Shown: positions 54,972-58,278 of the stretch, piece after piece | Layout of the letters: the number at the start of each line of letters is the position of its first letter | Numbering within the stretch: the first letter of the stretch is position 1 | Source: Acholeplasma sp. | GTDB taxonomy: Bacteria > Bacillota_I > Bacilli_A > Acholeplasmatales > UBA5453 | Reading direction: 5' to 3' | DNA: 64,000 nt | NCBI GenBank assembly: GCA_036677365.1 | Contig: JAVBWN010000012.1 | Coordinates: 96,001 to 160,000, forward strand | Program-made: the position numbers and the translations under genes | The notes under the pieces: generated by a model | What the model saw: the letters and a program-made list of their open reading frames with translations, nothing else | Told to the model about the DNA's origin: nothing | The model's database searches: none

Positions 54972-55751
54972 ATGAATAGAAAAAATGTGTTATGGTTTTT
55001 GGGTTTACTATTGGCTTGGCTTTCTTACATCCCACTGGGGTTTCTGATTGTAGAAACCAACGCCTTTGGACAATTGTATGAAAGTTTAAATTTATCACAA
55101 TCCAGTTTACGTTATTACATCACAGAGAATGCGTTTGATATGGCATTTATGGGCATCTTAACGATTGGTTTATTCATCCTATTGATCAATCGTTTTAAAT
55201 ACACCCAGGCAGTTCACTTTAAAATAACAACCATCACTAAAGTGGTTGTTTTGAGTGCTGTGATGATTTCAATCTTAGGTATGGTCATTCAAGTGTTATT
55301 CGCAGGGTCTAACCATCCCTTACATGCCTATATTGGCGAATACATCAAACAATTGTTGTGGGTTGGGATGGTTGAAGAATTGATCTTTAGAGGGTATATA
55401 TTCATTGAACTATTGAAATTGAAATCCTCTAAGTTTAAGTTAATATATATCGTTTTAATATCGGCTTTTATGTTTTCTATCATTCATTTACCAGCCTATT
55501 TCTTATACAACAGCCAATATGATTTATTATCCATTGTTTGGAATTTGATTTTCCCATTTTCCATTGGGGTCTTATATGCGTATCTTTTATATATGAATAA
55601 TGACATCATTTCGCTCATCTTCATTCACACAACCTCAAACATGATTTCATATTACACTGGTATCATGGGTACGGTGTGGCTAGTATTATTTTGGGTGGGA
55701 TTGGGTTATTACACCTATCATTCATATAAAACATATCTTCAAAACAAATAA
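54972..55751 (+). CDS. CPBP (CAAX/Rce1-like) intramembrane glutamic protease
   Basis: EELIFRG, FSIIH, HTTSN; multi-TM. Confidence 0.88.
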   Translation: MNRKNVLWFLGLLLAWLSYIPLGFLIVETNAFGQLYESLNLSQSSLRYYITENAFDMAFMGILTIGLFILLINRFKYTQAVHFKITTITKVVVLSAVMISILGMVIQVLFAGSNHPLHAYIGEYIKQLLWVGMVEELIFRGYIFIELLKLKSSKFKLIYIVLISAFMFSIIHLPAYFLYNSQYDLLSIVWNLIFPFSIGVLYAYLLYMNNDIISLIFIHTTSNMISYYTGIMGTVWLVLFWVGLGYYTYHSYKTYLQNK

Positions 55752-55800
55752 AGAAGTGCTACTACAGAACAGCATAAGTCAACGATTAGGATATAAAAAT

Positions 55801-55863
55801 AAAAAAACAGAAGCAGTAATCTGGCCTTCTGTTTTTTGAAACTCGATATGAGTTTTCAGGACA
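55801..55863 (-). ncRNA. Putative small structured RNA, downstream copy (candidate Abi antitoxin RNA)
   Basis: Own promoter TTGCAT-17-TATAAT (55897-55869); hairpin TGAAAACTC-atatc-GAGTTTCA, then terminator hairpin and U-run. Confidence 0.7.
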
Positions 55864-55903
55864 TGATTATTATATCACGAGGAATTTTTGTATGCAAAAC
55901 AAA

Positions 55904-56845
55904 TTACTTGAAAGTTGACTGAACAGTTTTACAATCAGATGATAAACCTAAGCTTAGCAACAGTGAGTTAACATTCACTGATCCTTTCTTATTGTAATGA
56001 GCAATCTCTAGTATATTTCGCATTATCGACTTAAAAAAAGTTATATTATCTTGCAACAAGTACGAACAATGGGCAATAGTAGCGAATAATGAAACTTTAT
56101 TTTTATTGAGAATAAAGTGCGGATTGTAAATGTATGGATGAAATTTTGAATTGGAGATTTTTTTCCCCTTTAAAGTATCAAAATCAAGAATAAACTCACC
56201 ATGTGCACAGGCATTTCTCAAGTAGTTTAGCTTCTCTACCACATTATTGAATTCAGAGATTTTTAAATCAAAACTGTTTACAATGCGCTCTTTAATGTCT
56301 TTATTTAGTAACTTGAAAAAGGTCCTAATTTGTCCGAATGTTAAATAGTGAGCAATTACGAATGGTGGCACAGATTCAATGGTAGAAAAATGATATTTAG
56401 CATCTAAATTTTTTTTCTTTTTCGCATAGACTGTCCAGCATTCATCAATAAAAGCAGTTTTTACCGCATTACGATCTTCATCAGTGCCTGTATTAGGGTA
56501 GTCAAAGACATCTACAATAAATGAGTTTATTGTAAAATATGCATAACCATTATCTTTACAATAATATGAATACTCATCTGCAATTTTGTTTCTGATAATT
56601 CTCTCACATCTAAGCACTAACAATAAGACTTCTTTAGAAATTTTTTCATTGGTTTCCTCTAGCCACTTGTAATCTTGAACGGTAAAGAAGGCTAATTTAC
56701 CATCGTGAAAAAGATATTTCTCATAGTTATGGTTAATTAGGTAATAGCTGGTTGTTTTCAAATAAGCTTCAATTTCTTTCTTAGTTGAAATACAACCTTT
56801 TTCAATTTGTCGATTTACTTGTCCTTCTAAAGTTAATGGCTCCAT
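55904..56845 (-). CDS. Abi family (AbiD/AbiF, Abi_2) HEPN protein
   Basis: LTLEGQV, SYY, CERIIR, PPFVIAHYLTFGQ, LRNACAHG. Confidence 0.85.
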   Translation of the reverse strand: MEPLTLEGQVNRQIEKGCISTKKEIEAYLKTTSYYLINHNYEKYLFHDGKLAFFTVQDYKWLEETNEKISKEVLLLVLRCERIIRNKIADEYSYYCKDNGYAYFTINSFIVDVFDYPNTGTDEDRNAVKTAFIDECWTVYAKKKKNLDAKYHFSTIESVPPFVIAHYLTFGQIRTFFKLLNKDIKERIVNSFDLKISEFNNVVEKLNYLRNACAHGEFILDFDTLKGKKISNSKFHPYIYNPHFILNKNKVSLFATIAHCSYLLQDNITFFKSIMRNILEIAHYNKKGSVNVNSLLLSLGLSSDCKTVQSTFK

Positions 56846-56892
56846 ATGTTCACACCTCTAAAGTTTATATATTAGGTATATTATAACATAAT

Positions 56893-56956
56893 AAAAAAAA
56901 CAGAAGCAGTAATCTGGCCTTCTGTTTTTTGAAACCATCAATCGGTTTCAGGACAT
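56893..56956 (-). ncRNA. Putative small structured RNA, upstream copy (candidate Abi antitoxin RNA)
   Basis: Own promoter TTGACT-17-TATTAT (56990-56962); hairpin TGAAACC-gattgat-GGTTTCA; 42 nt identical to the downstream copy. Confidence 0.7.
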
Positions 56957-57114
56957 AATCAATAATACCATAACGTGATTTTGTAGTCAATCCATTTTAG
57001 AACAAACTAAAAAAAATGCAAAATTGTAGAATAAGTATAATCTATATTCTATGAAAAGCGTATAAGATAGAATAATACAATGATTATTCGTTTATTTTCT
57101 AGTATAATGATATA

Positions 57115-58278
57115 GTGAAGGTGAAAGAAATGGATAAATTTGTAAGTTACGAAAAACGATTCTATAACCCTGAATTTACGGATACAAAGTTAGCGAAAAG
57201 AAAAAGAATGATGACAGATAAGCCTTATCTAAGTGCTACTATTAAGGATTTATCCCAAATAAAGATAGAAATCAGTCAAGAAACACAAGATTTGTTACTA
57301 GACTCGGTAGAAGGTTTAGCAAGACTTGATGGATATGTTCATCATTATCGAGATTTAATTTCTATGGTCATGCTAAGAGCTGAAGCTTTATCTAGTTCAC
57401 AAATAGAACATTATAGTGCCTCTAATCGAAGCGTGGCATTGGCACAAATTCACAAAAAGCAATCCACAGAAGCCATGATCATCAAATCCAACTTAGAGTC
57501 TTTGATTTTAGGTATTTCATCAAAAGAACCACTAGATACAAGTAAAATCATCCAATTGAATCAAACACTTTTAAAAAATCCAACCATGGACGTGCGTACC
57601 CGAATCAATTGGATTGGGACACCCAATTCTATACCCCATGAAGCAACCTATGTGCCACCACACCCTGAGCATCTTAATTTGTTTATGAGTCAGTTCATAG
57701 CTTTTTGTAATAGAAATGACATGCACCCATTGATTCAGTCAGCTATAGCTCATGCCTATTTTGAACTCATTCATCCATTCGAAGATGGAAATGGTCGTGT
57801 TGGCAGAATACTCATTCAGTGTTTATTAAGAGAAAAGCAGTTTTTAGAATTTCTTTCAATGCCATTTTCTGTAGGGATTGTTCATGATCAAGTCAGGTAC
57901 ATTCAAGCACTAAATGATTTTAAAGAAGGCAATTATGAGACCATCATTATTGTGCTATTAGAAAACACATTATACCTCGTACCCAAAGTGTATGATACAC
58001 TAGAAAAACTCATAAAACTCAAACAAAACTGGAAAGCCAAATTGAACATTCGACAAGATGCCCTAGCATGGAAAATACTGGATGATTTGATTGCACAACC
58101 CGTCATTGATGTAAAATATATTAGAGAAAAACACCAAGCCAATGATCAAGCTGTCAGAAATAACATACAAACGCTTGTGAATGTAGGTATCTTAAACATC
58201 ATAGGTAACGATAGTCGTGATGTTGCTTATGAATCCATTGAGGTATTGGATTTATTAGACCAATTCTCTAAAAAATAA
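57115..58278 (+). CDS. Fic family protein
   Basis: HPFEDGNGRVGR active-site motif; EALSSSQIE inhibitory-helix-like motif. Confidence 0.93.
   Translation: MKVKEMDKFVSYEKRFYNPEFTDTKLAKRKRMMTDKPYLSATIKDLSQIKIEISQETQDLLLDSVEGLARLDGYVHHYRDLISMVMLRAEALSSSQIEHYSASNRSVALAQIHKKQSTEAMIIKSNLESLILGISSKEPLDTSKIIQLNQTLLKNPTMDVRTRINWIGTPNSIPHEATYVPPHPEHLNLFMSQFIAFCNRNDMHPLIQSAIAHAYFELIHPFEDGNGRVGRILIQCLLREKQFLEFLSMPFSVGIVHDQVRYIQALNDFKEGNYETIIIVLLENTLYLVPKVYDTLEKLIKLKQNWKAKLNIRQDALAWKILDDLIAQPVIDVKYIREKHQANDQAVRNNIQTLVNVGILNIIGNDSRDVAYESIEVLDLLDQFSKK

Follow-up and report, generated by a model that had tools for sequence, protein, structure and literature searches.

The Abi_2 gene and its flanking RNA copies

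On the minus strand of the window, the whole 64,000-nt stretch of DNA that was analysed, a predicted promoter, a first copy of a small structured RNA, an extended -10 element, a Shine-Dalgarno sequence, a 313-aa ORF, a second predicted promoter and a second RNA copy follow one another in this order. The abi gene and both RNA copies share the same strand, and the RNA repeats lie 1093 nt apart with the gene between them and form no tandem array. The individual features are listed below.

56962..56990, minus strand: predicted promoter of the upstream RNA (-35 TTGACT, 17-nt spacer, extended -10 TGgTATTAT)
56893..56956, minus strand: upstream RNA copy, about 64 nt (hairpin 1 at 56950-56930, bulged hairpin 2 at 56924-56901, U8 tail)
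56880..56888, minus strand: predicted promoter of the abi gene, extended -10 TGtTATAAT
56853..56858, minus strand: Shine-Dalgarno sequence GAGGTG, read directly in the sequence
55904..56845, minus strand: Abi_2 / AbiD-F family HEPN protein, 313 aa, predicted homodimeric RNase toxin (Pfam, PADLOC, Foldseek)
56201..56218, minus strand: HEPN motif R210-NACA-H215, with residues invariant across aligned relatives
55869..55897, minus strand: predicted promoter of the downstream RNA (-35 TTGCAT, 17-nt spacer, extended -10 TGaTATAAT)
55801..55864, minus strand: downstream RNA copy, about 64 nt (hairpin 1 at 55858-55837, bulged hairpin 2 at 55831-55808, U7 tail)
55703..57008, no strand assigned: insert holding RNA-abi-RNA with all three promoters, approximate limits from the alignment with genome G009

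The gene encodes an intact Abi_2 (AbiD/F) HEPN protein. An earlier inspection of the letters alone (the sequence-only reading) had proposed an AbiF/AbiD-like HEPN gene at this place, and Pfam, PADLOC, profile and fold matches bear it out. The ORF matched PF07751 (Abi_2) with an E-value of 3.4e-18 and 67 bits, the curated cut-off being 25.6, and PADLOC AbiD with an E-value of 7e-23. The AlphaFold model of the protein has a pLDDT of 92, and the sole PDB match found by Foldseek at E ≤ 0.001 was the PbAbiF-ncRNA complex 8VZ6 (E 2e-6, TM 0.66, 14% identity), the same chain being matched by the protein profile at E 1.4e-4. R210, N211 and H215 are invariant in all 15 aligned sequences. The protein is a plain 313-aa polypeptide with a single HEPN domain and no extra domains, and no ToxN-type Pfam domain was matched in it. 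A homodimer was predicted with a score of 0.74 against 0.00 for the best control, a value that may reflect likeness to 8VZ6; the runs agreed in at least 90% of contacts with a pLDDT of at least 88 and placed residues 214-216 in the interface. The mark applied to such predictions is reached by 20 of 30 solved homodimers and by 1 of 23 monomers. Sixteen close relatives were found, most of them at 54-78% identity. In a library clustered at 50% identity the window's clade formed one cluster and the next proteins scored E 2e-14 or weaker, so that it constitutes an isolated Abi_2 subfamily; plasmid and phage collections yielded distant Abi_2 proteins only.

Both RNA copies fold as two hairpins (z -4.70 and -3.67), and none of 200 shuffles equalled them. 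They share a block of 42 identical nucleotides (56894-56935 and 55801-55842), preceded by a hairpin 1 whose stems differ between the copies and still pair, with differing loops; these features had all been described in the sequence-only reading, as had TGtTATAAT at 56888-56880 and one extended -10 promoter with 17-bp spacing for each RNA copy, which we could read directly. The terminator hairpin that it had described is likewise present, with the refinement that the 12-nt loop GCCAGATTACTG is predicted to resolve into a GC bulge, a CAG/CUG stem of 3 bp and a loop of 4 nt. A terminator scan, in which only loops of 3-8 nt were allowed, listed neither RNA hairpin. In the upstream copy the 5' AUGUCC is single-stranded, the A of ATGTCC being position 56956 and the U-run ending at 56893. 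All RNA copies keep the unpaired 5' CCUG and the GC bulge, and each has a different hairpin-1 loop.

A promoter scanner gave 10 of 12 matches for both RNA promoters and read the downstream one as TTTGCA-18; its -35 element TTGCAT begins 6 nt past the abi stop codon. Taken by themselves, promoter-like sites show no enrichment in this region, where 18 were counted as compared with 14.6 ± 3.8 in shuffles. In all six complete RNA copies known to us, those of the window and of the related loci described below, the first A is preceded, at a distance of 4-5 nt, by an extended -10 with a -35, a configuration that we formulated after the copies had been seen and that occurs in 769 of 568,370 AT-rich 45-mers of the genome (0.14%). 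The true RNA start may be this A or the invariant G two bases further on. The TGtTATAAT of the abi gene has no good -35; by eye, a TGnTAnnAT-like element precedes the gene in the related loci L007, L008 and L009, and a weaker one in L010. Two RNA runs gave contigs only, without start, end or strand: a single 455-nt contig inside the ORF in run X1, and a single 151-nt contig of depth 2 extending past the downstream terminator in run X2; no small RNA was delimited by either.

The 1.97-Mb genome holds only these two RNA copies (blastn and covariance model; next non-overlapping match E 4.3), which rules out the widespread terminator that the sequence-only reading had named as a possible refutation. 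An Rfam scan of the window matched the repeats to no family. The comparison with the Rfam abiF motif suggested in that reading gave no match: RF03085 gave nothing at E ≤ 10 in 1601 nt around the locus, and a search of the same size detected it at the phiC2 locus with 37.6 bits. An Rfam scan of 32 further loci (Abi_2 loci and the orphan copy L019, see below) returned no abiF match either. A run of RF03085 over 151 genomes returned nothing, controls included, and is uninformative; searches of genome and viral contigs for related loci and exact-pattern scans also returned nothing. Judged from these comparisons, the RNA is an uncatalogued family distinct from Rfam abiF, and as it has no abiF match the analogy to AbiF rests on the protein and the layout.

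The gene is accessory. It is absent from all 21 same-family genomes, and no close homologue was found among 306 other genomes of the order. Genome G009, of the same genus and with a 97% identical GuaB, has about 40 nt where the window has about 1300: it aligns up to window position 55702, resumes at 57009 and carries no RNA copy at this empty site. In another genome, G006, the whole CAAX-abi-Fic block is missing. Because all of them lie inside the insert and the empty site has no RNA copy, both RNA copies and the three promoters travel with the gene. The cassette is flanked by a CAAX/Rce1-like protease gene (54972-55751, plus strand) and a Fic gene (57115-58278, plus strand; PADLOC SoFic, E 6e-60), and the three make up a small variable island bounded by guaB and an S8 peptidase gene. 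At the insert edge (57009-57075) there are imperfect palindromic repeats (TAGAATAA..TATTCTA), also found at the empty site in G009 and in G006, which could be a regulatory site or a hot spot for insertions.

RNA copies in homologous loci and in other Abi_2 clades

A metagenome scan recovered six loci, two from the same species and four independent ones (L007-L010) at 58-69% identity. The RNA element was found beside the abi gene in all four independent loci. L007 and L009 have it downstream only; L008 has it on both sides, with an upstream copy truncated at the start of its contig; and L010, which lacks a downstream flank, has it upstream. With the window counted in, all 4 independent loci whose downstream flank is visible have a downstream copy and 3 of 5 have an upstream one, so that the downstream copy is the more constant one in this clade. 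The presence of the RNA beside homologous genes, its two copies only in the genome and their common location inside the insert tie the repeats to the abi gene.

In an alignment of seven RNA rows all cells of the 22 pairs are paired, 5 of the 22 pairs change on both sides, and at one position A-U, C-G and U-A are all represented. None of 500 shuffles reached this level of covariation and neither did slid controls; with seven rows, few and related, one of them a same-species variant, the covariation of the stems is supportive, not conclusive. Together with the homologous loci and the promoter offset, it upholds the earlier view that the repeats are structured, conserved RNA genes, each with a promoter of its own. 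Hairpin 1 sorts by position, with an ACC/GGU stem in both upstream copies (window and L010) and an ACUC-type stem in all four downstream copies. The hairpin-2 loop sorts by locus, being identical between the window's two copies and between the two copies of L008. The covariance model (R1) retrieved from 151 order-level genomes only the window's copies, a decayed copy (L019) and L020, which we rejected as a generic terminator; in 30 distant Abi_2 loci it had no match at E ≤ 0.1. L019 (G048:C1:1514257-1514322, E 0.001) is preceded by a TG-TATAAC element, and no abi gene or remnant was found within 1.5 kb of it.

A survey of the two-sided layout covered 98 distinct Abi_2 ORFs, taken from the homologous loci and from class- and order-wide Pfam searches, and aligned the upstream to the downstream flank of each; 91 ORFs had both flanks, and seven without a 150-nt flank, L008 among them, were left out. 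A flank score of at least 49, a cut-off set after the scores were known, was reached by nine loci, namely the window and 8 of 88 loci outside its clade, as compared to 4 of 1037 other ORFs of its own genome; the corresponding Fisher p of 5e-7 is overstated, kin being non-independent and the cut-off post hoc. Twelve rows scored at least 40, of which three (40-44) were dropped: L078 and L096 as AT-rich low complexity, and L092 as a 20-nt repeat containing a ribosome-binding site. The window segment 49332-51917 (minus strand) and four other ORFs of the genome also have similar flanks (scores 41-83), and two of these look like repeated terminators.

The layout recurs in four further Abi_2 clades with unrelated RNAs. 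The five bracketed clades (the window's, L029/L031/L059, L072/L120, L068 and L042/L056) have 19-32% mutual protein identity. On a quick tree the two-sided label needs six changes, at least four of them forced by well-supported branches, which may represent repeated gains or losses. As in the window, up and down copies in the other clades differ by changes that preserve the structure, and most of these RNA copies have, by eye, a promoter-like motif in front of them. In L042 and L056 the two copies keep position-specific compensatory pairs, and in L029 the hairpins are identical on both sides.

The uncatalogued hairpin RNA of L029, L031 and L059, the stem of which changes in a compensatory way and encloses a conserved AAACUUUYGAAGC core, also occurs, downstream only, in L003, L013, L014 and L098; it accompanies two Abi_2 clades in all. 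Three further RNA-like elements lie beside Abi_2 genes, mostly on both sides, in L072/L120/L077, L068 and L042/L056. Rfam abiF had no match in L029, L031, L042, L003, L013 or L014; several of these clades' RNAs and the abiF consensus nevertheless appear to resemble each other in a lower stem, an asymmetric bulge and a short upper stem. When their upstream and downstream flanks were compared, phiC2, Javan324, IPP38 and pNCDO700D scored 18-30, below threshold. On the plasmid of Lactococcus cremoris NZ_CP069184.2 (L134), a consensus promoter, a structured stretch and a terminator lie downstream of the Abi gene, and the region upstream of it is cut by an IS3 element.

Many Abi_2 genes, for instance those of a clade of about 20 members (family f11), have no obvious flanking RNA by eye, and an RNA partner is thus not universal in the family. 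The f11 genes (rows L033-L055) encode RNLCAH, occur in 20 of 20 sampled genomes of one family and often run into a similar downstream membrane-anchored gene; this clade is possibly domesticated. The window's own genome carries a second, unrelated Abi_2 gene (G000:C16:104958-105854, minus strand; 298 aa, RNAVAH), with a promoter-like element and a two-hairpin RNA-like element downstream, the first hairpin of which (AAACUC-loop-GAGUUU) resembles hairpin 1 of the window's downstream copy.

A candidate RNA antitoxin with two predicted transcription units

We favour, with a probability of about three in four, the reading that the locus encodes a toxin-antitoxin system similar to type III, with two separate transcription units supplying its RNA antitoxin. 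Three units would then exist: the upstream RNA, the toxin mRNA from its extended -10 promoter, and the downstream RNA. Directly bound by the ~64-nt RNA, likely through the invariant 5' CCUG and the GC-bulged hairpin 2, the predicted HEPN RNase dimer would stay inactive. Two strong promoters of short terminated RNAs would yield an excess of antitoxin over toxin without read-through attenuation, and this presumed excess would replace the read-through ratio control of RCd22 and of classical type III systems. Hairpin 2 would double as a terminator, and the downstream copy would also end the abi mRNA. Phage infection or loss of the cassette would stop the supply of RNA; the RNase, no longer inhibited, would then cleave RNA of the cell and halt its growth.

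Characterised AbiF proteins are described as toxic HEPN RNases that a cis-encoded RNA neutralises by binding them directly, and from these systems we infer the trigger, the toxicity, the RNase activity and the RNA-protein binding of the present one. RCd22 is reported to neutralise C. difficile AbiF in trans via RNA-protein binding and to co-purify with it, and R202/H207 mutants of this AbiF to lose toxicity (Saunier et al., bioRxiv 10.1101/2025.04.15.648962); PbAbiF is described as binding one ncRNA per monomer, through a bulge (PMC12737573). Since the RNA of L007 and L009 lies downstream only, it cannot be a leader or attenuator there. The longest perfect antisense match of the RNA to the abi mRNA is 7-8 nt, which disfavours a type I (antisense) mechanism. 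Given the downstream-only copies and this lack of antisense complementarity, protein binding in trans would be the most likely role of the RNA. Several points speak against the toxin-antitoxin reading: the decayed orphan L019 exists without an abi gene, many Abi_2 genes have no obvious flanking RNA, the RNA does not match Rfam abiF, the independent homologous loci number only four, and covariation of hairpin 2 is also expected of a plain terminator.

The sorting of hairpin 1 by position and of the hairpin-2 loop by locus would fit two copies that are not redundant. Hairpin 2 might bind the toxin, and the hairpin-1 variants might differ in stability or in sensitivity to different phage triggers, the RNA then being a sensor or a required cofactor as well as an inhibitor. 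The position-specific compensatory pairs in the unrelated L042/L056 clade point in this direction, as does the report that the antiphage activity of lactococcal AbiF depended on its upstream element (PMC11381338). The numbers are tiny (2 versus 4 copies; 2 loci), a single copy suffices in L007 and L009, the L029 hairpins do not differ between sides, and an old duplication followed by neutral drift also yields position-specific stems; we consider such a division of labour rather unlikely and, the numbers being too small, do not prefer it to drift after an old duplication.

That the elements act in cis only, as strong terminators that shield a toxic gene from read-through and end its mRNA, we regard as improbable. 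The identical 42 nt are mostly a terminator-like hairpin and U-run, and RCd22 is reported also to repress in cis through its terminator (bioRxiv 10.1101/2025.04.15.648962). A terminator needs no promoter, however, and yet one stands at a fixed offset before each of the six complete copies; hairpin 1, like the GC bulge and the unpaired 5' CCUG, is invariant, and the element occurs nowhere else in the genome.

It is more improbable still that the repeats are a by-product of mobility, whether as a target-site duplication, as the ends at which a cassette recombined or as what is left of a tandem duplication. The insert is indeed accessory, and the neighbours of the abi unit differ in every homologous locus. 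Against this, the empty site of G009 holds no solo copy, and both copies lie with their promoters within the insert, which also disposes of the insertion duplication that the sequence-only reading had listed as a refutation. The copies moreover differ by structure-keeping changes, their promoter spacers are unrelated with the consensus kept in both, and the layout recurs in five clades. The second RNA copy may still have first arisen by a past tandem duplication.

We give almost no credence to the RNA being a primitive guide with a variable targeting loop on the way to a Cas13 crRNA: AbiF is a proposed ancestor of Cas13 (PMC12165695, PMC12737573), and the variable loop in a constant scaffold pointed out in the sequence-only reading is real, with a different hairpin-1 loop in every copy, but this loop is not guide-like, being only about 5-8 nt long, AU-rich and of varying length, there is no array beside the plain single-HEPN protein, and characterised AbiF ncRNAs are described as antitoxins and not as guides (bioRxiv 10.1101/2025.04.15.648962, PMC12737573).

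The Abi_2/AbiF protein family and the principle of its RNA antitoxin are already known. In the papers covered, the antitoxin is described as an upstream leader with the toxin expressed by read-through; the present locus and its relatives suggest that the RNA can stand as a gene of its own, placed after the toxin gene or on both its flanks, and that several unrelated RNA families, all absent from Rfam, are used by AbiF clades. No description of downstream or two-sided AbiF RNAs was found in the parts covered of Saunier et al., PMC13064643, PMC11381338, PMC12165695, PMC12737573 and the main text of PMC5737381, and the separately promoted downstream or two-sided arrangement is provisionally new. 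Antitoxins would be missed if abiF is cloned or annotated with its upstream region only. Duplicated, partly diverged ncRNA copies offer a direct test of which RNA elements neutralise the HEPN site and of whether duplication frees one copy to diverge. A wider proposal, that two separately promoted bracketing RNAs are a recurrent AbiF design (five clades, five RNAs) with functionally distinct copies combining a common toxin-binding hairpin and position-specific trigger modules, we hold to be unlikely; if true, these loci would represent natural duplication and diversification of an AbiF ncRNA, a proposed step toward Cas13 crRNA arrays.

Comparison with known systems

Type I toxin-antitoxin systems rely on an extended complementarity to the toxin mRNA that the window's RNA does not have. 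In type VI CRISPR-Cas13 or Cas13e a repeat-spacer array accompanies a two-HEPN effector, whereas the window has no array and a single HEPN domain. With the classical type III systems (ToxIN/AbiQ, CptIN, TenpIN) the common logic would be an RNase toxin neutralised by direct RNA binding. Their antitoxins are described as tandem repeats co-transcribed upstream of a non-HEPN toxin; the window, in contrast, has no tandem array, separate predicted units and a toxin of HEPN fold.

The lactococcal AbiD/AbiD1/AbiF proteins belong to the same family as the window's protein (PADLOC AbiD), the best plasmid-borne lactococcal Abi match to it having about 24% identity; they too have a short promoter-terminator element beside the gene, described as upstream only. 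The pair AbiF_Cd-RCd22 of the Clostridioides difficile prophage phi027 (RF03085) resembles the window in an Abi_2 protein with RNxCAH, in two RNA motif copies per locus and in a terminator at the RNA 3' end, the protein similarity being limited to 26% over 61 aa. In RCd22, as described, both motifs reside in one upstream transcript and no promoter lies between this transcript and abiF, which is co-transcribed by read-through, whereas in the window a separate promoter is predicted for the gene and for each of the RNA copies, one of which lies downstream. As judged from its sequence motifs, the window would thus depart from the RCd22/lactococcal model of an upstream, co-transcribed RNA and a read-through toxin.

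PbAbiF-AbiFr of Prevotellaceae (8VZ6; Zilberzwige-Tal et al., Cell 2025) is like the window in fold and in the RNxxxH motif, as well as in a small cis-encoded structured RNA with a bulged stem, a likeness drawn from the description of AbiFr; the homodimer predicted for the window would be a further likeness. Its ncRNA is described as lying upstream of the gene (PMC13064643), whereas the RNA of the window stands on both sides of its gene, and that of some relatives downstream only.
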